This document shows, one piece after another, positions 1 to 44,053 of a stretch of DNA of 64,000 bases. Under the pieces are notes generated by a model, which worked only from the letters and a program-made list of their open reading frames with translations, was not told the DNA's origin and searched no databases. Within the stretch, counting starts at the first letter, position 1; every line of letters begins with the position of its first letter. Both the position numbers and the translations under genes were made by a program. The stretch lies in NCBI GenBank assembly GCA_963739095.1, contig CAVTZF010000021.1, positions 87,842 to 151,841 of the forward strand, read 5' to 3'. This DNA is from an uncultured Thermoleophilaceae bacterium (lineage in GTDB: Bacteria; Actinomycetota; Thermoleophilia; Solirubrobacterales; Thermoleophilaceae).

Positions 1-1745
1 CGCGCATGGGATGCTGGCCTTCACGGTCGTTCCTCTTCCCGGCTCCGATTCCACCTCGAGACGGCCCTCGAGCACCGCCATCCGGTCGGCGAGGCCGCGC
101 AGGCCGGTGCCCCTCGCGGGATCGGCCCCGCCGACCCCGTCGTCGGCGACCGCCACGACGACCCGCCCGTTGTGGCGCTCGACGCTCACCGTCGCCTGGT
201 TTGCGGCAGCGTACTTCGCGACGTTCGTGAGGGCCTCGGAGACGACGAAGTAGGCGGCCAGCTCGACCGCCTCCGGCAGGCGCTCGGACGGGACGGGGCC
301 CAGCTCCACCGGGACCGGCGCGCGCAGAGCCAGAGACTCGACGGCGGTGCGCAGGCCGCGCTCGGAGAGCACCGCCGGGTGCAGCCCGCGGGCGAGCTCG
401 CGCAGCTCCTCGAGTGCCGCCTCGAGCTCCTCGCCGGCGCCGGCGAGGAGCGTCTCCGCTCCACCGGGATCCTCGCGCAGCTTCGACCGCGCCATCCTCA
501 GGTTGAGCGCGAGCGACACGAGTCGCTGCTGGGCACCGTCGTGCAGGTTGCGCTCGAGCCGGCGCCGCTCCTCGAGCCCGATGCGCAGCATGCGCTCGCG
601 CGACCCGCGCAGCTCCTCCAGCTTGGCGCGCAGCTCGGCGTCGAGTCGCTCGTTCTCGAGGGCGAGCGCCGCGGCGGCCCCGACCGCGCGGACGTGGTCG
701 CGCGCCCCGGCGAGCGAGGCGTCGTAGACGATGGCCGCGATCGTCTCGCCCTGGAGCTCGACCGGCGCCACGGCGCGCCCCGAGCCCTGCTTCGGCAGCG
801 TGAAGGGCCGGCCGGCCACGTCGACGAAGCGCGCGCTCTCCGGCAGCCAGTAGACGAGCTCGAGCGACGGATCGGAGAGGGCGTCGGCAAGCGCGTCGCG
901 GAGCTCGCCCGGGCGCGGCGCCTCGCCCAGCCGCGAGATCAGCTCGCCGACGGCGCCGCCCTGGAGCACGCGCGCGCGAGCGAGCGCGGCGAGGAAGACG
1001 AAGGGGATCAGCCCCAGCAGGGCCATTGCCGACAGCCACGCGACATTGGCGGCGTCGCTGCTTTTCGCGGCGGCGTTGACGCCGACCGTCGCGACGAGGG
1101 CGACCATCAGCGCGATGCCGGTGAGGTAGAGCGGCCCGTAGAGCCGCCGCTCGGCGCCTGCCGCGCTCCGGTAGCGGCGGACCAGCAACACCATCGCCAC
1201 GACCACCAGCACGACCGCCGCGGCGTCGAGCGCCGTGCCGAACACGTCGACGACGGTGTCGTTCGCCGAGATGAGCAGGACGTTGTCCGGACAGTCGTCG
1301 CAGCCGAAGGAGCTCTGCGGGTCCGCGAACAGGTACAGCGGGAGCACGAGCAGCGTCAGGACGTAGGCGGTTCCCACGAGTCGCCGCTCGAAGGTGGTGT
1401 GGAGGTGTCCGTTGGGCGTGGACAGAAGCAGCTGCAATGCGGTCACGAAGAAGACCGAGCCGATGACCTGGCCGAAGGTGAACAGGATCGCGATGTCGGA
1501 TACGCCGACGAGGCTGAGCAGCCAGGCGAACCCGGTGGCCGTCATCAGCATGCCGACGCGGCTCTCGGGATCCCGGGACCAGGCGAACAGGCCGGTTCCA
1601 ACCCAGCCCCAGCCGACGAACAGCCCAAGCGCGGCGACCGCCCCGCGCAGCGGCAGGTGGTTGCTCGTCAGGATGAGCGCGAGGTCGATCAGGCCAAGCG
1701 CTACGGCGGCGCCCCCGAGTCCCCAGAGGGCACGGCGCAGTGAGG
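1..1745 (-). CDS. Sensor histidine kinase, HisKA_3 + HATPase_c (NarL/DesK type) with multi-pass membrane N-terminus. The 3' end runs off the window and the start codon is not resolved.
   Basis: Own translation of the minus strand; it is absent from the ORF track because there is no stop inside the window. H-box region EERRRLERNLHDGAQQRLVSLAL, N-box AYFVVSEALTNVAKYA, G-boxes VADDGVGGA and GTGLRGLADR. The N-terminal two thirds are hydrophobic. The reading frame continues across the stop of the upstream response regulator. Confidence 0.85.
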
Positions 1746-2096
1746 TCAGAGGAGCGCCTCCAGCGCCGCGCCAGACAGCTCCGACTTCGGGATGAAGCCG
1801 CGAACCTGGGCGCTCTCGCCGAGCGGCCCGAGGTCGTCGACGTCGCGGCTTGAGGTGAGCACGACGGCGGGCGCCGATCCGTTGGCGGTGATACGCGCCG
1901 CGACCTCGAAGCCGTCGATGTCGGGCAGCTGCACGTCGAGCAGGACCATCTGCGGGTGCAGCTCGTGCACCGCCTCGATCGCCGTCAGGCCGTCGGGCGC
2001 CTCGCCGACCACCTCGAAGCCCTCGGCCTCGAGCAGCATGCGCGCGCTCGCCCGGAAGCTCGGGTGGTCGTCGACGATGAGGACGGTTATGGCCAT
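1746..2096 (-). CDS. Response regulator, receiver (REC) domain only, ~116 aa, no recognisable output domain
   Basis: MAITVLIVDDHPSFR...MVLLDVQLPDIDGFEV...VVLTSS is a typical REC fold with the DD pair and phospho-acceptor D. The internal ATG at 2096 was chosen over the track start at 2153. Directly upstream of the kinase gene. Confidence 0.85.
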   Translation of the reverse strand: MAITVLIVDDHPSFRASARMLLEAEGFEVVGEAPDGLTAIEAVHELHPQMVLLDVQLPDIDGFEVAARITANGSAPAVVLTSSRDVDDLGPLGESAQVRGFIPKSELSGAALEALL

Positions 2097-2180
2097 CTCA
2101 GCGCGGATTGTGTACCCGGCCGGGCATTTATCCAATACGGATAGCCACACCACCGGGCCCGCCTATCATCCGCCCTCCTC

Positions 2181-2867
2181 ATGGAGGGTGCCACCGAGCC
2201 GATAGCCGCGCCGCCGTCCGAGCTGCCACCGGAGCTCCGCGGCGAGCCGCCGCCGCGCAGCGGCGGGCCGCTCGCGCTCATGCGCTTCATGCGCGCGAAG
2301 GGCATGCTGAACCTGAAGTACGGGCGGCTGATCGCGCGGCTCGGCTGGTGGAAGCTGCGCCTGCGCGGGCGGCTCCTGCTCGACGGGCTCGCCTTCATCG
2401 GCCCCGGCTGCTCGCTCGAGGTGGGCCCCCGCGCCACCATCGAGCTCGGGCGCTGGTCCTGGGTCGGCCACGGCTGCAAGATCCGCTCGCACGAGGGCGC
2501 CGTGTCGATCGGGGCGAAGACCGTGCTCGGCCAGGAGTGCACGATCTCGTCGTTCCAGCACGTGTCGATCGGCCGCGAGTGCGTGATCGCGGACCGCGTG
2601 ATGCTGATCGACTTCGACCACGGCATGGTCGAGGTCGAGCGCCCGATCCGCCTCCAGGGCATCTACAAGCGCGACGTGCGCGTCGGCAACAACGTCTGGA
2701 TCGGCTACGGCGCCTGCATCCTGCGCGGCGTGACCGTGGGCGACAACGCCGTGATCGGCACCAACGCCGTGGTGACCCGCGACGTCCCGGCCAACGCCGT
2801 CGTCGGCGGCGTGCCGGCGCGGTTGATCCGGATGCGCGAGGCACCCCAGCGGATGCGCTTCTCGTAA
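2181..2867 (+). CDS. Hexapeptide-repeat (left-handed beta-helix) acyl/acetyltransferase
   Basis: Repeated [LIV]-G-x4 hexapeptides: SIGAKTVLGQECTISS, SIGRECVIADRV, VGNNVWIGYGACILRGVTVGDNAVIGTNAVV. Maltose/galactoside O-acetyltransferase-like C-terminus. Confidence 0.8.
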   Translation: MEGATEPIAAPPSELPPELRGEPPPRSGGPLALMRFMRAKGMLNLKYGRLIARLGWWKLRLRGRLLLDGLAFIGPGCSLEVGPRATIELGRWSWVGHGCKIRSHEGAVSIGAKTVLGQECTISSFQHVSIGRECVIADRVMLIDFDHGMVEVERPIRLQGIYKRDVRVGNNVWIGYGACILRGVTVGDNAVIGTNAVVTRDVPANAVVGGVPARLIRMREAPQRMRFS

Positions 2868-2984
2868 CGCGCGCGTCGCCGAGTTGTCACACGCGGGTGC
2901 TGAACCGTGACGCGCGGGGCGCCACGATCCGCCCATGACTCGCGAGTGGACGAATTGCGCCAGACATACAGACGCCGGAATTCG

Positions 2985-3900
2985 CCACTCGCGGATCCTG
3001 ATGCCGCGATCGCGGGGTTGGCCGGAGAGCCAGCACGGCGTCGTTTCGCTGCCGCAGCTGACCGTGTTGGGGCTCGGGCCGAGCGCGGTGCGGGAGCGCG
3101 TGCGGGCGGGCGCCTGCATAGCGTTCACCGCGGCGTCTACGCGGTCGGGTATCGCGCGCTCACCGCCGCGCGGCAGCTGGATGGCGGCCGTGCTTGCCTG
3201 TGGCGACGGCGCAGTTCTCTCCCATGGTCGGCCGCATGCTTTGGGGATTGCGCGAAGGAGGTGGCGTCGCGGGTCGACGTGACTGCGATCCGCGGAGGAC
3301 GGCGAAGAGCACGCGCCGGCGATCCGCGTCCATTGGCGTCGTCTGTCGCTCGCCGTCGACGTCACCGCCTGCGACGGGATCCCCTGTACCTCCGTCGCCC
3401 TTACCCTGCTCGACCTCGCCTCGGTCGTCTCCCCGCGAAAGCGCTCGAGAACGCCTGCGACCGCGCCGAGCAGCTGCGCATCTTCGACGGCCGCGCCCTC
3501 GAGGACCTGCTTGTGCGGGCCCAGGGCGAGCGCGGCACGAAACGCCTGCGCGAGACGCTCGAGCAGCTGGACCCGAGCGGCGCGCTGACCCGCAGCGAAA
3601 TCGAGCGCCTGATGCTCGCCCTCTGCCGCGCCCACTCCCTTCCCCAGCCAGTCGTAAACGGCTGGATCCAGCTGGACGGCATCGGCTTCTCCCCCGACTT
3701 CCTCTGGCCGAACGCCAAGCTGATCGTCGAAACAGATGGCCACACGACCCACCGCACGAGGAAGGCCTTCGAAGCCGACCGCCGCCGTGACCAGCTCCTG
3801 GCCGAGGCCGGCTACACCACGCTGCGCTTCACCTGGCGCCAGCTCACGACGGAGCCCGAGCGCCTTGCGCGCACGATCAGGGCCGTGCTGGACCGTGCGG
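2985..3900 (+). pseudogene. Decayed DUF559 / AbiEi_4-like endonuclease-domain gene with at least 5 frame changes
   Basis: Family-typical segments lie in alternating frames: DAAIAGLAGE | SQHGVVSLPQLTVLGLGPSAVRERVRAG | RLHSVHRGVYAVGYRALT | WMAAVLACGDGAVLSH | VDVTAIRGG | IRVHWRRLSL..DGIPCTSVALTLLDLASVVSP | ALENACDRAEQLRIFDG...TRSEIERLML...LIVETDGHTTH...DRRRDQLLAEAGYTTLRFTWRQL. There is no stop before the MMPL start. Confidence 0.75.
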
Positions 3901-3969
3901 TTACCCACACCTCCCTTAGGGGGAATTCCGCATTGGAACGGAGGTCGCCCGAGACGGACGATCTCCCCA

Positions 3970-6214
3970 TGAGCCATTCGAAGACAAACAACATCGCAGC
4001 GCGCGCCGGAAGGTGGAGCGCCCAACACCGGAAGAAGGCCATCGTTGGATGGCTTCTCTTCGTGATCTTGGCCGTCTTCATCGGCGGCTCAGTAGGCACC
4101 AAGACGCTCGACGACGTCGACGACTCGGGCATCGGCGAGTCCGGCCGGGCTGACACTGCGGTCTCGCAGAACTTCCCGGACAAGGTCTCCGAGAGCGTGA
4201 TGGTGCAGAACAAGAACGCCTCGGTCCGCGACCCCGAGTTCAAGGCGGTCGTGGCCGACGTCCAGGCCGCGCTCAAGGACGACCGCGGCGTCCGGAACAT
4301 CAGCAGCCCGTACGGCAAGGGCAATGAGGGCCAGCTGTCGAAGGACGGCCACTCGGCGCTCATCACGTTCGAGCTGCCCGACAAGGACGGACAGGCGGAG
4401 GACCTCGTCGAGGCACCGCTTGCCACCGTCGCCAAGCTGGACAAGCAGCACTCCGGTTACACCATCGAGGAGTTCGGCGACGCGAGCGCCGACCGGGCGC
4501 TGTCAAAGGCGTTCTCGGATGACTTCCAGCGGGCCGAGATCACCTCTCTGCCGATCACGCTGATCATCCTCATCCTCGCTTTTGGTGCGCTGCTCGCAGC
4601 GTTCGTCCCCCTGCTGCTCGCCATCACCGCCGTGGCGGCGGCGATCGGCCTGATCGGCCCGATCTCCCAGATCTGGCCGGTGGACGAGTCGATCAACTCG
4701 GTCGTGCTGCTGATCGGCCTGGCCGTGGGCGTCGACTACGCCCTCTTCTACATCCGCCGTGAGCGCGAGGAGCGCGCACGCGGGCGTAGCGAGGAGGCGG
4801 CGCTCGAGGCCGCGGCCGCGACCTCGGGCGTGCAGTGCTCGTGTCCGGCTTCACCGTGATCGCGGCGATGGCCGGCATGTACTTCGGCGGCGCTCCGACG
4901 TTCATCTCGTTCGCCACGGGCACGATCCTCGTGGTGGCGATCGCCGTGCTCGGCTCGCTGACCGTGCTGCCCGCGGTGCTCTCGAAGCTCGGCGACCGCG
5001 TCAACAAGGGCCGGATCCCGTTCCTCAAGCCGGAGCGCCGCACCGGTGAGCCGCGCGTGTGGTCGTGGGTCCTCAACCGCGTGCTGGCGCGCCCGCTGAC
5101 CTCCGTGATCGCGGCGGGAGCGGTGCTGGTCGTGCTCGCGGTGCCGGTGCTGCACATCCACACGGCCGACTCGGGCGTCGACGGGCTGCCGCGCTCGCTC
5201 GAGGTCATGCAGACCTACGACCGGATGCAGGCCGCCTTCCCGGGTGAGCAGTTCACGGCGGACATCGTGGTCGAGGGCAACAACCTCGACAAGGCTCAGA
5301 TCCAGGGCTACGCCCAGGAGCTGCGCCAGCTCGCGGCCGACTCGAACGAGTTCCACGAGCCGGTGACCGTCGACACGAGCCCCAACGGCAACGTCGCGGT
5401 GTTCGAGGTCCCGGTGGCCGGCACCGGCACCGACGAGACCTCGATGGACGCGGTCACGACGCTGCGCGAGGACGTCGTGCCGGACGTGTTCGGGAACGTC
5501 CAGGGCGGCGAGCTCGTCGGCGTGACCGGATTCACCGCCGGGTCGATGGACTTCAACGACCTGATGGCGGAGCGCATCTGGTACGTGTTCGCGTTCGTCT
5601 TCGCGATGGCGTTCCTGCTGCTGCTGGTGACGTTCCGGTCGATCGTCATCCCGATCAAGGCGATCGTCCTGAACATCATGTCGGTGGCTGCGGCGCTCGG
5701 AGTCGTGACCTGGGTCTTCCAGGACGGGCATCTGGAGGACTTCCTCAACTTCGACTCCACCGGCGCGATCACGGCCTGGTTCCCGCTGATGCTGTTCGTG
5801 ATCCTGTTCGGCCTCTCGATGGACTACCACGTGTTCATCCTGAGCCGGATCAAGGAGGCGTTCGATCGCGGCGAGAGCACCGACGAGGCCGTCGCGCACG
5901 GCATCAAGTCGACGGCCGGGGTGGTGTCCGCGGCGGCGCTCGTGATGGTCGGCGTGTTCTCCATCTTCGCCACGCTGTCGTTCATCGACATGAAGCAGTT
6001 CGGCGTGGGCCTGGCCGTGGCGGTCCTGCTCGACGCCACGCTCGTCCGCGGTGTGCTGCTGCCGGCGACGATGAAGCTGCTCGGCGACTGGAACTGGTAC
6101 CTGCCGAAGTGGCTCGAGTGGCTGCCCAAGGGCCCCGCGCTCGAGGGCTCCGGCGAGCCGGTCGAGGAGCGGCGCGTGCCGCCCCGCCACGACCCACAGC
6201 CCGCCGAGGCCTAG
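3970..6214 (+). pseudogene. MMPL-family (RND-type) membrane transporter, split by one frameshift near 4826-4830
   Basis: The N-terminal half lies in the frame of track ORF 2907..4859 (MSHSKTNNIAARAGRWSAQHRKKAIVGWLLF...YALFYIRREREERARG...AAATSG). The remainder is in ORF 4835..6214 (RAVLVSGFTVIAAMAGMYF...LSMDYHVFILSRIKE...). The junction ATSG|RAVLVSGF needs a +1 base in the run tcgggcgtgc. Confidence 0.8.
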
Positions 6215-38154: not shown

Positions 38155-39681
38155 CTAGCCGACCGTCTCGGCAGCCCCACCGCGGCGCGGGTCGCCGCCA
38201 CCGGTCAGCGCTCCCGTCTCGGGGTTGCGGGCAACCGCCTGGACGCCGCCGAAGAAGAGGTTCTGCTCGGTCCAGCGGCGCACGCGCCAGCCGCCCGCCT
38301 CGAGGCGGTCGAGCGACCCGGTCGCCACGCCCGGCTCGGCGTCGATCTCGCGCCCCTCGACGTGCAGGCGTGGGCTCGACACCGCCTCCTGCGCAGGCAG
38401 GCCGTGGTCGATCACGCCGATGATCGTCTGGAGGATCGCCGAGCGGATCCGGTTCGAGCCGGCGCTGCCGAGGGCCATCTCGGGCCGGTCGTCCGCGGAC
38501 AGCACGACGGTCGGGGCCATCATGCTCGGCACGCGAGCGCCCGGCTGGTGGCGGTGGAAGCCGAGCGGATTGAGGTCCTGCTCGCCGAGCATGTTGTTGA
38601 GGTGCATGCCGGTCCCGGGCACGACGACGCCCGAGCAGGAGCCGTTCGAGCAGGTCACCGAGGCGCAGCCGCCCTCGGCGTCCATGACCGAGATGTGGGT
38701 GGTGTTTCCCAACCGCGAGCGCACCTCGATCGCCACCGAGTCGAGCGCCTCCTTCGCCAGGAACTGCTCGAGATACCCCTCGGTGGCGAGCCCCTCCTGG
38801 AAGTCCTCGTCGCGGGCGCGGTTGGTGGACGCGATCACCTCGGCGATCACGTCTGCGTCGGTCGGCCGTTCGAGGCGCTCGAGGATCCCGAGCGCGTCCG
38901 CGATCAGGATGCCGCCCGACGACGGCGGCGGGTTCGTGAGCACCTCGCGCCCGCGGTAGCCGACGCGCGCGGGCGGGCGCTCGATCACCTCATAGGAGGC
39001 GAGGTCCGTGCGCGTCAACAACCCGCCGCGCTCGAGCACCCAGTCGCTCGCCGCGGCGGCGACGTCGCCCGTGTAGAGGAAGCCGGGGCCCTCGGCCCCG
39101 AGGCGCTCGAGCAGCTGGCCGAGCTCGGGAAGCCGGATCGTGTCCCCCTCGCGCAGCAGGGTCCCGCGCGGCGCGTAGAGCGCCGCGCACTCGGGCGTCG
39201 AGCGCAGGATCGGCTCCAGCACGGTGAACAGGAAGGCCTGCATCCGCACCACGTCGACGCCCTCGCGGGCGGCGCGCGCGGGCGCCGCGGTCAGATCGGC
39301 CAGCCGCGCCGTGCCGAAGCGCTCGAGCGCCTCGGCGAGCCCCAGTGTCGTGCCGTACGCGCCACACGACGAGGGGCCGACGTTGAAGCGCTGGATCGCA
39401 TCCTCCGCGAAGCGGACGTCGATCGGCAGCAGTGCCGCCGGCTCGCGTTCGTCGATGCCCTTCCCGGGCGCCGCGACGAAGAAGTCGAGCAGGTGCGATC
39501 CGCCCTCGGGGACGTGCACGAGCATGAAGCCGCCCGCGCCCGGGCCGGTGAGCGGCGACTCGGCCACGAATGACATCAGCACGCAGGCGACCGCCGCGTC
39601 GACGGCGTTGCCGCCGGCACTCAGCACATCCGCTCCTGTTCGCGCCGTCAGCGGATGGCCGGCAGCGACGACCCCTCTCAT
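38155..39681 (-). CDS. ggt: Gamma-glutamyltransferase family protein
   Basis: GGNAVDAAVA, nucleophile region GNTTHISVMD, SSGGI, PSMMAPT. Confidence 0.85.
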   Translation of the reverse strand: MRGVVAAGHPLTARTGADVLSAGGNAVDAAVACVLMSFVAESPLTGPGAGGFMLVHVPEGGSHLLDFFVAAPGKGIDEREPAALLPIDVRFAEDAIQRFNVGPSSCGAYGTTLGLAEALERFGTARLADLTAAPARAAREGVDVVRMQAFLFTVLEPILRSTPECAALYAPRGTLLREGDTIRLPELGQLLERLGAEGPGFLYTGDVAAAASDWVLERGGLLTRTDLASYEVIERPPARVGYRGREVLTNPPPSSGGILIADALGILERLERPTDADVIAEVIASTNRARDEDFQEGLATEGYLEQFLAKEALDSVAIEVRSRLGNTTHISVMDAEGGCASVTCSNGSCSGVVVPGTGMHLNNMLGEQDLNPLGFHRHQPGARVPSMMAPTVVLSADDRPEMALGSAGSNRIRSAILQTIIGVIDHGLPAQEAVSSPRLHVEGREIDAEPGVATGSLDRLEAGGWRVRRWTEQNLFFGGVQAVARNPETGALTGGGDPRRGGAAETVG

Positions 39682-39731: not shown

Positions 39732-41237
39732 CTAGCCGCGCGGGATGAACTCGGGAACGTCGATGTCGCTGAGCGTGCCGGCGCTCTGGCGGTCGCGGGT
39801 GCGGCGCACGCGCGGCTCGGCGTCGGCGGGGATCGAGTGGTCGCGCCGCGGCGCGCGCGGCAGCGGGCGGTCCCCGTAGCCGGTCGCGACGACGGTCACC
39901 CACACCTGGTCCTCGACCTTCTCGTCGACCATCGCGCCGAAGATGATGTTCGCCTCCGGGTGGGCAGCCTCGGCGACCGCCTTGGCCGCCTCGTTGACCT
40001 CCCACAGGGACAGGTCGCGGCCGCCGGTCACCGAGAGCAGGATCGAACGCGCTCCCTCGAGCGAGGTCTCGAGCAGCGGAGACTCGATCGCGTGCTCGAC
40101 GGCGTCCATCCCGCGGCGGTCGCCGGTTCCCATGCCGATCCCGAGCAGCGCCTGACCCGCTCCCGACATGATCGTGCGGACGTCGGCGAAGTCGAGGTTG
40201 ATGAGCCCCGGCAGCGTGATCAGGTCGGAGATGCCCTGCACGCCCTGGCGCAGCACGTCGTCGGCGACGCGGAAGGCCTCGACCATCGAGGTCGACTTGT
40301 CGAGCACCGACAGGAGCCGCGAGTTCGGGATCACGATCAGCGTGTCCACCTCGCGCGCGAGCTCCTCGACACCCTGGTCTGCCTGCTCGCCGCGACGCGC
40401 GCCCTCGAACGAGAACGGCTTCGTCACGATGCCGACGGTCAGCGCACCGATCTCGCGCGAGATGCGCGCGACGATCGGCGCCGCGCCGGTACCCGTGCCA
40501 CCGCCTGAGCCGGCCGTGATGAAGACCATGTCGGAGCCCTTGAGGTAGCCCTTGAGCTCGTCGTAGGACTCGAGCGCCGCGGCCTGGCCGAGCTCCGGGT
40601 TCGAGCCGGAGCCGAGGCCGCGCGTGAGGTCGCTTCCGATATGCACGCGCGTGTGCGCAGCGGAGCCCTCGAGCGACTGCATGTCGGTGTTGATCGCGAT
40701 GAACTCGACGCCCTCGACCTCGGCCTCGATCATGCGGTTGACGGCGTTGACGCCGGCGCCGCCGACGCCCACGACCCTCAGCATGGGCTCCGTGACGCCG
40801 CCGGACATCGAGCGGATCATCGGTTCGGGCTCGGGGTCGCCCCCGGCCGGCTCGCGCTGCTCCGGCGCGTGCTCGAGGATGTTCTCCGGGATGTCCGAGG
40901 AGAACACCGAGCGCAGGCGGTCCTCCGGGCTCGGCACGCCCTCGTAGCGGCTCCAGCGCTGCTCGCGCTCCTGGCGGCGCGCGTCGCGCTCCTCGGCGCG
41001 GCGGGCGGCCTCGGTCAAGCGCTCTGCCTGGGACCGCCGCTGCGGGAGCTCTTGCTTGAGATCAGGCTGCTCCTGCCCCTGCGGCTCCGGCACGTGGCGC
41101 GTCGTCTGCGGCGCGGGGCCGTCCTTGGGCAGCGGGCGGCCGGCCTTCGGCTCCTGCTCGGGCTTGCGGTTCTCGGCACCCTCCGGGGCGTCGTCCTCCG
41201 TCTTGCGGAAGAGCTGCGCCAGGGGGCCCTCGCGCAT
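39732..41237 (-). CDS. ftsZ: Cell-division GTPase FtsZ with a ~155-aa charged N-terminal extension
   Basis: Core: [26 protein letters not shown] (tubulin signature), NLDFADV (T7 loop), C-terminal peptide [11 protein letters not shown]. The extension ([16 protein letters not shown]...EPEPMIRS) has strongly G/C-biased third positions in this frame. The ATG at 41237 lies 10 nt after the parA-like stop. Confidence 0.9.
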
Positions 41238-41247
41238 GCTCGCCCTG

Positions 41248-42015
41248 TTACCGCTTGCCATTCGCAAGGACCTCCTCCGCTAGCTGGCGGTAGGCGTAGG
41301 CCGCCTTCCCGTCCGGGTCGTACTTCAGCACCGACATGCCCTTGACCGGCGCCTCTGCGAACCGCACGGTCTTGTTGATTCGTGATGCGAATACCCGGTC
41401 CCCGAAGTTCTCCTCCAGGATCTCGATCGCCTCCTTCGCGTGGACGGTCCGATTGTCCACGAGCGTGGGCAGGATGCCCTCGATCTCGATGTCCGGGTTG
41501 AGCTCGTCGCGCACCATCGACAGCGTGTTCTGGAGCTGGATCAGCCCGCGCATGGACAGATACTCGCATTGCACGGGGACGATCACCTTGTCCGAGGCGG
41601 TCAGCGCGTTGATCGTGAGCAGCCCGAGGCTGGGCGGCGTGTCGATGAAGATGAAGTCGTAGTCCTCGAGGATGGGCGCCAGCGCCTTCTTCAGGGCGCG
41701 CTCGCGGCCGATCATCGTGGACATCGCGATCTCCGCGCCGGCCAGGTCGATCGACGCGCACGCGACGTCGACCTCGCGCTTGCGGATCACCTCACGGATC
41801 GAGAGCTGGTGGACGAGCACGTCGTACATCGACGCCTCGAGCGAATCGGGGTCGATCCCCTGGCTCATCGTGAGGTTGCCCTGCGGGTCCAGGTCGACGC
41901 AGAGCACGCGGTGGCCTCGCTCGACGAACGCCGCGGCGAGGTTGAGGGTGGTGGTCGTCTTCGCGACGCCGCCCTTCTGGTTGGTGAAGGCGATGACCTT
42001 GGCCTTGGGCGTCAT
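41248..42015 (-). CDS. ParA/Soj-family (deviant Walker A) ATPase
   Basis: [45 protein letters not shown]. Confidence 0.9.
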
Positions 42016-42068: not shown

Positions 42069-42995
42069 GTGGCTGCGCTACTGGACAAGCGACTCGTGCT
42101 CGTGACCGGCAAGGGCGGCGTCGGCAAGACGACCGTCGCAGCCGCGCTCGGGCTCGCTGCCGCGCGCGCCGGGAAGCGCACGGTGGTGTGCGAGGTGGCC
42201 GAGCAGGAGCGGCTCGCAGCCATGTTCGGGGCGAGCGACATCGGGCACTCAGAGCTCGAGCTCGCCCCCGGGCTGTTCGCCGTGTCCGTCGACCCGGAGC
42301 GGGCGAAGGCGGAGTGGCTCGGCTACCAGCTGCGCTCGTCGACGCTTGCGGGCGTGCTCGGCGGCAACCGCGTGTTCCAGTACCTGACGGCCGCGGCGCC
42401 GGGACTGACCGAGCTCGTCACGATCGGCAAGGTCTGGGACCTCGCGCAGCTCGAGCGGCGCACCGGCGGCTCGGTCTTCGACCTGGCCATCGTCGACGCG
42501 CCCGCCACGGGCCACGCACTTGCGATCCTGCGCGCGCCGCAAACGTTCGCGGCTATTGCAAGGGCGGGGCCGGTCGCTCGCCAGGCGGAGCGGATCGACG
42601 CCTTCCTGCACGACAGCGCCGCCACCGGCGTGCTCGTGACCGCCCTGCCGGAGGAGATGCCCGTCAACGAGACCGTCGACTTCGAGCGCGCCCTGCGCGA
42701 CGACCTTGGGATGGACGTCGACGCGATCGTGGTGAACGCGCTACACCCGGCGCGCTTCAGCGCCGCCGAGGCGCGCACGCTCGAGTCGCTCGACCGCCGC
42801 GGCGGGCCCGCCGCCCGCGCAGCGCTGCGCGCCGCGCTCTCGGAACACGCACGGGCACGGGCCGAGCGCGCTCAGCTGCGCCGCCTGCGGCGCGCCGTCA
42901 GGGCGCCGGTCTCGACGCTCCCGCGGATCTTCGAGCCCGAGCTCGGCCGCGACGAGCTCGAGCAGCTGTCGGCCGAGTTGGAGCGCAGGCTGTGA
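42069..42995 (+). CDS. ArsA/Get3-like P-loop ATPase (first of a pair; Rv3679-like)
   Basis: LVLVTGKGGVGKTTVAAAL and IVDAPATGHAL. GTG start. Confidence 0.8.
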   Translation: MAALLDKRLVLVTGKGGVGKTTVAAALGLAAARAGKRTVVCEVAEQERLAAMFGASDIGHSELELAPGLFAVSVDPERAKAEWLGYQLRSSTLAGVLGGNRVFQYLTAAAPGLTELVTIGKVWDLAQLERRTGGSVFDLAIVDAPATGHALAILRAPQTFAAIARAGPVARQAERIDAFLHDSAATGVLVTALPEEMPVNETVDFERALRDDLGMDVDAIVVNALHPARFSAAEARTLESLDRRGGPAARAALRAALSEHARARAERAQLRRLRRAVRAPVSTLPRIFEPELGRDELEQLSAELERRL

Positions 42996-44053
42996 TCGAG
43001 AACTGGCTCGAGCGCAAGGAGGTCTGCATCTGCTGCGGCTCGGGCGGGGTCGGCAAGACGACCGCGTCGGCCGCGATCGCGCTCGGCATGGCGGCACGCG
43101 GCAAGAAGGTCGCGGTGCTGACCATCGACCCCGCCAAGCGGCTCGCCAACTCGCTCGGGCTCGACGAGCTGGGCAACGAGGAGCGGCTCGTCGACGCCGA
43201 CGTGTCCGGCGAGCTGTGGGCGATGATGCTCGACCCCAAGCGCACCTTCGACGACATCATCGAGTGGCACGCCCCGGACGAGCGCACACGCGACGCCGTT
43301 CTCTCGAACCGGATCTATCAGGAGCTCTCGAATGCCGTGGCCGGCTCGCAGGAGTACATGGCGATGGAGAAGCTCTACGAGCTCCACCAGGAGGGGCGCT
43401 ACGACCTGCTCGTGCTGGACACCCCGCCCACGCGGAACGCGCTCGACTTCATCGACGCGCCCAAGCGGCTCGCGGACTTCATCGACTCACGCTCGCTGCA
43501 GTTCTTCACGGCGCCGGGCATCTTCGGCCTGAAGGTCCTGGGACGCGGCAGCGGGCTCGTGTCCTCGGCCCTCCGGCGCGCCACCGGGATCGACCTGCTC
43601 GAGGACCTGTCGGCGTTCTTCTCGAGCTTCGGCTCGATGACCGAGGGCTTTCGCGAGCGCGCCGGGCACGTCAACGAGCTGCTCGCCGACAGCCGCACCG
43701 CCTTCGTGCTCGTGACCTCACCGCGCGCGGATGCGATCGAGGAGGCGCGCTGGTTCCACCACCGCCTGATGGACGCCGGGCTCCCATTCGCCGGCGCGGT
43801 CGCCAACCGCGTGCGCGCCGAGCCACCGGCCGGCGACCCGGCGCCCGAGCTTGGCGAGCTGCTCGACCCCGCGCTCACACGCAAGGTTCTGCGGACCTGG
43901 GACGAGGAGCGTCAGCTGGCGGCGCGCGACCGCGAGAACCTGGCGACCCTGAAGCGCCGCCTGGGGCGCAGGCCGATCATCGAGGTGCCGTACATCGACG
44001 ACGACGTCCACGACCTCGAGGGCCTGCGGAGGATGGACGAGTTCTTGTTCTGA
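42992..44053 (+). CDS. ArsA/Get3-like P-loop ATPase (second of a pair; Rv3680-like)
   Basis: ICCGSGGVGKTTASAAIA, VLTIDPAKRL, LVLDTPPTRNALDF. GTGA overlap with the first ATPase. Confidence 0.8.
   Translation: MIENWLERKEVCICCGSGGVGKTTASAAIALGMAARGKKVAVLTIDPAKRLANSLGLDELGNEERLVDADVSGELWAMMLDPKRTFDDIIEWHAPDERTRDAVLSNRIYQELSNAVAGSQEYMAMEKLYELHQEGRYDLLVLDTPPTRNALDFIDAPKRLADFIDSRSLQFFTAPGIFGLKVLGRGSGLVSSALRRATGIDLLEDLSAFFSSFGSMTEGFRERAGHVNELLADSRTAFVLVTSPRADAIEEARWFHHRLMDAGLPFAGAVANRVRAEPPAGDPAPELGELLDPALTRKVLRTWDEERQLAARDRENLATLKRRLGRRPIIEVPYIDDDVHDLEGLRRMDEFLF

Follow-up and report, generated by a model that had tools for sequence, protein, structure and literature searches.

A ParA-like ATPase gene coupled to a second, N-terminally extended ftsZ across the class Thermoleophilia

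Introduction

To our knowledge, Actinobacteria are without Min and Noc, and the placement of their division ring is therefore an open question. The orphan ParA-like ATPases PldP (Cg1610), Rv1708, and MSMEG_3743 affect division, and no partner is known for them (PMC3989709, PMC10482377). In this study, a stretch of 64,000 nucleotides (nt; hereafter the window) from an uncultured Thermoleophilaceae bacterium (assembly GCA_963739095.1, contig CAVTZF010000021.1, positions 87,842 to 151,841) was analyzed. It encodes a two-gene unit that is found across the class Thermoleophilia and consists of parA-Z, the gene of a ParA/MinD-family ATPase, and ftsZ2, a second ftsZ paralog whose product carries a long N-terminal extension.

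Several described systems are close to this arrangement. PldP, Rv1708, and MSMEG_3743 have been tied to division-site selection by minicells and septal foci (PMC3989709, PMC10482377); Corynebacterium PldP mutants form minicells, and PldP-CFP marks the nascent septum (PMC3989709). According to a review, PldP lacks a partner and unidentified contacts to the divisome may exist (PMC3989709). The locus type of these ATPases is given by MSMEG_3742, which is scpA (PMC10482377). In the PomXYZ system of Myxococcus xanthus, PomX activates the nucleoid-bound ParA/MinD-type ATPase PomZ through a short basic peptide at the N-terminus of an unstructured region, and the cargo marks the site of the FtsZ ring (PMC7993993). 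The N-terminal peptides of Spo0J, SopB, MinE, and PomX suffice on their own, and such a peptide on a tether, encoded directly behind the ATPase gene, is the known layout of ParA/MinD activators (PMC7993993). In type Ib partition (ParF-ParG of TP228, ParA-ParB of pCXC100), the flexible N-terminal tail of a small partner activates the ATPase and its dimeric C-terminal domain binds DNA. MipZ of Caulobacter crescentus is a ParA-like ATPase that acts directly on FtsZ for ring placement. In Atribacter laminatus, two FtsZ genes occur, a conventional one and an N-terminally extended one away from the division genes (PMC7736352).

Where PomXYZ recruits FtsZ indirectly via a large PomX/PomY scaffold, peptide and tether are here located on the FtsZ paralog itself; no PomX/Y-like genes were found here and no homology between the partners was seen. 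MipZ, which takes its pattern from ParB, is an inhibitor of FtsZ, and the FtsZ on which it acts has no special peptide. ParA-Z fits the MipZ model of Pfam only partially (46.6 bits). The Atribacter protein belongs to a different phylum, its extension of up to 73 amino acids (aa) is read as a membrane helix, and no linkage to ParA is reported (PMC7736352). In type Ib systems the tail is carried by a small domain, in place of which FtsZ2 has an FtsZ body. Judged by the tree and by the type of locus, the closest out-of-class relatives of ParA-Z belong to the PldP type; there, however, a small peptide-bearing protein is encoded between the parA-like gene and scpA in many Actinomycetes, while in the class the peptide is found on FtsZ2 and scpAB lies elsewhere. 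No published description of the parA-Z/ftsZ2 arrangement was found in a literature search, and searches on FtsZ in Thermoleophilia, Conexibacter, or Solirubrobacter returned no relevant description.

Results

On the minus strand of the window, parA-Z (41248..42015) encodes a 255-aa ATPase of the ParA/MinD family with the deviant Walker A motif KGGVAKT, and its last 14 nt overlap the start of ftsZ2 (39732..41261, minus strand; 509 aa plus stop). FtsZ2 loci were taken from 65 genomes. Sixty-one loci were informative; besides the window, 39 came from its order, another 19 from further families of the class, and 3 from the families f7 and f12. In all 61 informative loci, covering 13 families, parA-Z lies directly 5' of ftsZ2, with its 3' end at the ftsZ2 start. 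Locus L077, which has an FtsZ1-type copy and no ParA, was left out of the counts. When ParA-Z was searched against 121 genomes of the phylum, matches within the class had 63-100% identity and always lay next to ftsZ2, and the best matches outside the class reached 47-52%.

The ATPase matched the Pfam family AAA_31 with 209 bits and additionally CbiA. It is 43% identical to the Soj of the same genome (contig C17) and 40% identical to a third ParA-like protein (contig C29). The best PDB matches were the orphan ParA-like structures 4PFS/5IHP (E 2e-63), followed by 8RAY and then Thermus Soj; we take 4PFS to be from Mycobacterium smegmatis. The Arg of the DNRT segment of ParA-Z is presumably the equivalent of Soj R189. 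ParA-Z has neither the C-terminal amphipathic membrane helix nor the MinC/MinE partners of MinD, and no match to MinC_C was found in the genome, although six control genomes did match. SepF is present once. The third ParA-like gene (C29:89876-90595, minus strand) is very divergent, has a long branch in the tree, and is followed by no recognisable partner.

FtsZ2 is predicted to be a complete FtsZ: it has the GTPase motifs, and most families also keep a C-terminal partner-binding peptide. It scored 414 bits against TIGR00065, the NCBIfam ftsZ equivalog model with a cut-off of 295, and its only Pfam domains are those of FtsZ (PF00091 with 153 and PF12327 with 109 bits), the Tubulin/FtsZ GTPase domain spanning 164-322 and FtsZ_C 371-463 in 511-aa numbering. 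Residues 159-466 (39864..40787, minus strand) form the core, which includes the GTPase domain, FtsZ_C, the G-box GGGTGTG, and the T7 loop NLDFADV (NxDFAD). The C-terminal peptide (39735..39770, minus strand) is preceded by a linker of ~30 aa and aligns with IDVPSFL of FtsZ1. The initial annotation, which was made from the letters of the window alone, had called the core and this peptide canonical, in agreement with these results.

The genome carries two ftsZ genes. A dcw-linked copy, whose existence the initial annotation had left to be checked, was located on contig C18 at the end of the run murD-ftsW-murG-murC-murB-ftsQ-ftsZ; its product, FtsZ1, has 371 aa and a normal short N-terminus. Over the core, FtsZ2 shares 56% identity with FtsZ1, and an (I/L)DVP(E/S)F peptide closes both proteins. 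Unlike the gene of FtsZ1, ftsZ2 lies outside the dcw cluster, which is the typical though not the defining location of the family, and has the parA-like gene and a gamma-glutamyltranspeptidase gene as neighbours. In the same order, 60 of 61 genomes carry two ftsZ genes, as do ~96 of 101 genomes of the class (13 families), while among 140 genomes from other classes of the phylum a double ftsZ was restricted to one family. This family (f40) was considered as a second FtsZ2 lineage and rejected as unrelated. In its 4/4 genomes (for example L100 ~1163-3600 and L101 ~3479-5759) the two ftsZ are tandem duplicates with short N-termini, with no ParA and neither extension nor peptide; the pair is an independent ftsZ duplication.

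The reading frame of ftsZ2 is open from stop to stop over 39732..41267 on the minus strand, with the stop codon at 39732-39734, and contains two in-frame ATGs near its beginning, at 41261 (MASGNRASM...) and 41237 (MREGPL...). Both occur in 39/39 informative loci of the same order. The sequence GGAGGT (41270..41275, minus strand) forms a Shine-Dalgarno box 8 nt 5' of the first ATG, within the parA-Z coding sequence (codons EEV), and (A/G)AGGAGGT is present at 8-nt spacing in all 39 of these loci plus the window. The parA-Z stop codon (TAA, 41248-41250) falls between the two ATGs, producing the 14-nt overlap. In several relatives the open frame starts just one codon 5' of the first ATG, so that no start is possible further upstream. 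Public gene calls for FtsZ2 and close relatives give 509 aa, that is, the first ATG; close homologs are labelled Thermoleophilaceae bacterium by NCBI. The true start is therefore most likely ATG 41261, eight codons 5' of the position 41237 that was assumed initially; the Shine-Dalgarno box, the parA overlap, the 39/39 loci, and the public calls speak against the latter. Translation from the internal ATGs at the head of the core, named at the outset as an outcome that would have overturned the extension, was not borne out either: these Met codons are variable, and relatives show V, L, T, or K instead (PVLRVVG, PTLRVVG, PKLRVVG).

The initial annotation had further described a long in-frame N-terminal extension rich in E/R/P/Q with G/C in third positions. 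This description held. About 160 residues precede the core, with E24, R22, P21, and Q12 among 163 residues, and the G/C content at third codon positions is 0.951 before the core and 0.945 within it, a pattern without counterpart in the other two frames. The extension is thus, as far as coding pattern and conservation can tell, real and translated, and it is predicted to be largely disordered. Alignment divides it into three parts, namely a near-invariant N-terminal peptide, a variable linker, and an order-specific motif 2. Across families, the open frame before the core ranges from ~41 to ~250 aa. The AlphaFold2 (AF2) model of FtsZ2 is poor (mean predicted local distance difference test, pLDDT, of 53; shallow alignment) and serves only as a rough indicator of disorder; in it the extension is mostly disordered with helices at residues 14-17, 78-103, and 112-120.

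The N-terminal peptide comprises residues 1-21 (41199..41261, minus strand) and is proposed to dock on and activate ParA-Z. It is near-invariant in the order and recognisable in every family of the class, for example as MAKRHSMHDGPLAALFKAT, and contains the basic residues R6, R10, R19, and K20. Its invariant residues are encoded by 2-5 synonymous codons each, and 43 nucleotide versions correspond to 14 peptide versions in 45 loci; since synonymous codons vary, the peptide is under selection at the protein level and not as an RNA signal or through the 14-nt overlap.

The adjoining linker (residues 22-77; 41031..41198, minus strand) is acidic, Pro-rich, and of low complexity, with pLDDT <50 in the low-confidence model, and both its sequence and its length differ among the informative loci (~20 to 200 aa). 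A charged helix follows (residues 78-103; 40953..41030, minus strand; pLDDT 65-69 in the same low-confidence model), which is kept within genus and family only. Motif 2 (residues 104-130; 40872..40952, minus strand) contains the invariant alignment columns R105-N127; its form P(S/T)P(E/K/Q)(E/D)RL..FS.DIP.N(I/V)(L/M) was found in the families f1-f6 of the same order and is absent in the other orders of the class. It includes DIPxxIL, which resembles the DIPxFL of the FtsZ C-terminal peptide, and might compete for the binders of that peptide. The extension ends in a variable spacer (residues 131-158; 40788..40871, minus strand; pLDDT <50 in the poor model) with a non-conserved Met148, and Met160 lies just within the core. 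Conservation of the upstream ~465 nt as coding sequence, on which the initial annotation had made its case depend, was accordingly found in part: the N-terminal peptide is under selection and motif 2 is kept, whereas the low-complexity part is not conserved. In two genomes of family f7 (L097, L098), FtsZ2 keeps the N-terminal peptide and lacks the C-terminal (L/I)D(V/I)P.F peptide; here, the former may be the only tether of FtsZ2.

The extension could also be mainly a disordered regulatory region, acting on polymerisation, bundling, condensation, or turnover, with a conserved N-terminus that consists of translation-initiation or degradation signals. Its low complexity over most of its length, pLDDT <50 in the poor model, and the parA overlap, which constrains the first five codons, are in line with this explanation. 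Conservation nevertheless reaches codon 21, well past the 14-nt overlap, with synonymous sites varying freely; the linker sequence itself is not conserved, and the same peptide is found on a non-FtsZ protein, as described below. We regard this explanation as very unlikely.

Outside the class, 15 of the 20 best loci matching ParA-Z carry a gene, overlapping or directly 3' of the ParA-like gene, for a protein of 113-147 aa that starts with M(K/S)(G/R)RASLPGADELFR.T, or in general form MxRRASLPGADELFRxT. The gene overlaps that of the ParA-like ATPase or follows it within a few nt. Its product consists of an invariant N-terminal peptide, a variable low-complexity linker, and a conserved C-terminal domain of ~65 aa, a layout that mirrors the FtsZ2 extension. 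No family match was found for it in Pfam and NCBIfam. In the AF2 model of the C-terminal domain (pLDDT 95-98), three helices come after an extended segment, and a PDB fold search with this domain gave no significant match. The best small-domain match was 3NO7, the centromere-binding protein of the actinobacterial plasmid pCXC100 (template modelling score 0.67 by target length, E 6.4, probability 0.21). The small protein has the layout of type Ib partners, with a non-significant fold match to the pCXC100 protein; a ribbon-helix-helix assignment was considered for its domain and, with a best match at E 6.4, remains a guess.

A scan of one genome per species yielded at least 544 loci of the small protein in Streptomyces, Nocardioides, Marmoricola, Propionibacteriales, Frankiales, Pseudonocardiales, and others. 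Eighty loci were kept, 46 of which fit the strict motif pattern; in 46/46 of these the end of a ParA-like gene lies 18-139 nt 5' of the LPGA codon, and in 30 of 41 scpA lies within 1.5 kb 3'. The other 34 of the 80 loci show variants such as RRVSMPAADDLFRPT. The locus of Streptomyces nymphaeiformis runs parA-like, small protein, scpA, scpB, an arrangement of the PldP/Rv1708/MSMEG_3743 locus type. A gene for such a protein (113-200 aa) between a PldP/Rv1708-type parA-like gene and scpA-scpB was observed in Streptomyces, Nocardioides, and many Actinomycetes (e.g., L208:2492-2992), and the protein may be the missing partner of the "orphan" PldP/Rv1708-type ATPases. In a sample across the phylum, the small partner occurred in 39 of 151 genomes (nine families) and in 0 of the 11 genomes of the class that were included. 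FtsZ2 shows the opposite distribution, and the two are complementary.

The two peptides were compared in a MAFFT alignment of the FtsZ2 peptide with those of the small partners (MS--RRASL---PGADELFRxT), which gave eight invariant columns (M1, R6, P13, A15, L17, F18, R19, T21); the motif shared by the two is R-x-S-L/M...LFR-x-T. In Smith-Waterman comparisons with 20,000 shuffles, p ranged from 1e-4 to 3e-4 for family f8, from ~1e-3 to 2e-3 for f10, from 4e-3 to 6e-3 for f9, and from 8e-3 to 0.02 for the window. The similarity of the sequences taken alone is moderate; it becomes persuasive in combination with the identical position (residues 3-17), the layout, and the genomic slot behind related ATPases. 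The motif goes with the ATPase lineage independently of the cargo domain, with moderate support for the identity of the motif.

An amphipathic helix targeting the membrane was considered for the N-terminal peptide, in which case FtsZ2 would bind the membrane directly and the linkage to parA would serve regulation only. The segment has a hydrophobic moment of 0.60, compared with 0.38-0.78 computed for known membrane helices, the low-confidence AF2 model places a short helix at residues 14-17, the Atribacter FtsZ extension, read as an amphipathic helix, provides a precedent (PMC7736352), and the f7 proteins would need another anchor, their C-terminal peptide being absent. The ParB peptide, however, scores equally high (0.69), so that the hydrophobic moment does not discriminate; just three hydrophobic residues occur in the segment, with acidic ones flanking it. 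The peptide with internal D and E (GADELFR) moreover heads the scpAB-adjacent small protein, whose C-terminal domain is modelled as soluble and helical and which has the look of a soluble factor associated with the chromosome, and a tether of up to ~200 aa would be unusual for the membrane anchor of a ring protein. Membrane targeting is hence considered quite unlikely.

For other carriers of the peptide, 1.84 billion representative proteins were searched at E <= 0.001 with a profile built from residues 1-30 of the window's FtsZ2 and of 20 small partners. The search returned 240 protein clusters, nearly all of which matched at residues 1 to ~28; long matches were longer-linker small partners, read-throughs after a frameshift, or calls in which the ParA gene had been joined to the next gene. 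A supposed fusion of the peptide to SRP54 (P0217) lies on a chimeric 745-bp scaffold and was discarded. In cluster P0203, an O-methyltransferase domain (PF01596) encoded directly downstream of ftsK carries the peptide (MSEYRRASLPGADELFRST); the loci (L240:255-932, L241:884-1561) come from three metagenome contigs, all of them short and without a ParA gene in view. The peptide is evidently modular, to judge from P0203.

Such carriers also bear on a different explanation, by which the peptide binds a partner other than the adjacent ATPase (SMC-ScpAB, FtsK, ParB, or a protease adaptor) and adjacency to parA reflects a shared pathway. The O-methyltransferase downstream of ftsK without ParA in view, the position of the small partner gene between the parA-like gene and scpAB, and a reported interaction of Rv1708 with ScpA and ParB (PMC10482377) speak for it. 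In the class, though, scpAB lies elsewhere without ParA (C18:161357-162678 in this genome, behind a trpS-like gene and with no ParA nearby), and the peptide is nevertheless kept beside parA-Z in 61/61 loci. The upstream ParA-like gene is the sole element common to the FtsZ2 and the small-partner loci, and peptide plus tether directly behind an ATPase is the layout of known ParA/MinD activators (PMC7993993). This explanation is therefore judged unlikely.

The unit also resembles the chromosomal ParABS system. The soj-parB pair of the genome, with its single ParB, is located on C17 and its junction is built alike, with the Shine-Dalgarno sequence inside the ATPase gene and the partner beginning at the end of that gene. 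FtsZ2, whose gene occupies the slot after parA, opens like ParB with a basic N-terminal peptide and an L-x-x-L-(L/F) end, yet it has no N-terminal box (K/R)xGLGRGLxALL and no ParB N-terminal or helix-turn-helix domain. Homology of the two peptides was considered and rejected. Two hidden Markov models (HMMs), one of 30 ParB N-termini from the class and one of 62 FtsZ2 N-termini, were run against the 54,189 six-frame open reading frames (ORFs) of the genome and gave no cross-match, and shuffle tests of the FtsZ2 peptide against the ParB peptides of the class were non-significant except, weakly, for family f8. The likeness to ParB is therefore one of layout and does not qualify as homology.

In an IQ-TREE phylogeny of 82 ParA-family sequences, ParA-Z formed one clade (100/99) and the Soj proteins of the same class another (100/97). 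ParA-Z groups with the ParA-like proteins linked to scpAB, and not with chromosomal Soj, yet it is not encoded upstream of scpA-scpB. The ParA-Z clade joins the clade of ParA-like proteins with a small partner (92/78). A further ParA-like paralog in family f14 (L147, L152) adjoins the ParA-Z clade (95/80). About 280 nt 3' of it, a protein of 165-173 aa is encoded whose N-terminus is rich in Lys (MAKKSKRDLKKARKQ...) and which is perhaps another kind of partner.

Two sets of neighbouring genes were noted in the window. The gamma-glutamyltranspeptidase gene (38155-39681, minus strand) begins 50 nt past the stop of ftsZ2, and its synteny is kept in 43 loci; because of this short gap and the synteny, it is possibly on one transcript with ftsZ2. 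At a distance of 53 bp from parA-Z, and transcribed divergently from it, lies an overlapping pair of ArsA/Get3-like ATPase genes (42069-42995 and 42992-44053, plus strand). By tblastn, their counterparts came up in 36 and 33 loci out of ~64 with FtsZ2, most of which belong to the same order; no arsenic genes lie nearby.

Discussion

The reading that we favour is that the N-terminal peptide is the module by which ParA-Z is docked on and activated, with FtsZ2 as the direct cargo of the ATPase; its chances are, in our judgement, slightly better than even. The tail of FtsZ2 is probably a handle for the ATPase because its peptide also starts the small protein behind related ATPases. It is laid out like the ParA/MinD activators, in that the N-terminal peptide is short, basic, and conserved and the tether that carries it is arbitrary in sequence and presumably flexible, and its gene adjoins that of the ATPase in every informative locus, with the 14-nt overlap and the Shine-Dalgarno box inside parA-Z. 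From the outset, the extension had been proposed to act as a membrane or partner tether or to modulate polymerisation. Among these roles, the partner tether is the one now favoured, since the peptide also heads an unrelated small protein behind ParA-like ATPases.

According to the proposed mechanism, ATP-bound dimers of ParA-Z would sit on the nucleoid, and an FtsZ2 polymer would present many N-terminal peptides that dock on ParA-Z and stimulate its ATPase. The FtsZ2 assembly would thereby be held or positioned relative to the nucleoid, similar to the ParB-parS or PomXY cargo, and there, in concert with SepF and the FtsZ1 of the dcw cluster, FtsZ2 would seed or guide the division ring. In its widest form, this proposal makes ParA-Z and FtsZ2 a self-contained two-protein system for nucleoid-templated selection of the division site, in which FtsZ2 polymers are cargo and multivalent activator at once and FtsZ has replaced the DNA-binding domain of the small partner. 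This wider form is put forward tentatively and is considered rather doubtful.

Several observations weigh against docking and activation of ParA-Z by the peptide. The node joining ParA-Z to the PldP type is only moderately supported (92/78), and the co-occurrence of peptide and ParA-Z within the class is explainable by descent alone. The shuffle tests are weak for the families f11, f13, and f7 (p 0.02-0.18). The common pattern R.S[LM].{4,8}LF[RK].T, whose single occurrence in 7.77 million six-frame residues of the genome is at the FtsZ2 N-terminus, had been defined for this regular-expression census after both peptide sets were seen. Neither the profile HMM of the FtsZ2 peptide nor that of the small-partner peptide found the other, probably because of an indel of 1-3 residues inside a motif of 15 residues, and the HMMs of the FtsZ2 peptide and ParB never found each other among the 54,189 ORFs, even at E = 1000. 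The receptor of the peptide need not be a neighbouring ATPase, given that P0203 occurs without ParA in view. In addition, the AF2 model of FtsZ2 is poor, with the mean pLDDT of 53 noted above.

The simplest history would be that the class inherited an ATPase of the PldP/Rv1708 type together with its small peptide-bearing partner, and that a copy of ftsZ then took over the place of the C-terminal domain of this partner, with peptide and tether retained.

If correct, FtsZ2 would be the first FtsZ that itself carries a ParA/MinD activator module, as far as the literature searched shows. It would link a ParA-type motor directly to FtsZ, and the peptide would provide a sequence tag for the partners of this ATPase subfamily. 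In the whole class to which the window belongs, this presumed partner peptide is found on an FtsZ paralog. If the wider form of the proposal holds true, the peptide would also point to the partner long sought for the PldP/Rv1708-type ATPases of Streptomyces, Nocardioides, and their relatives.

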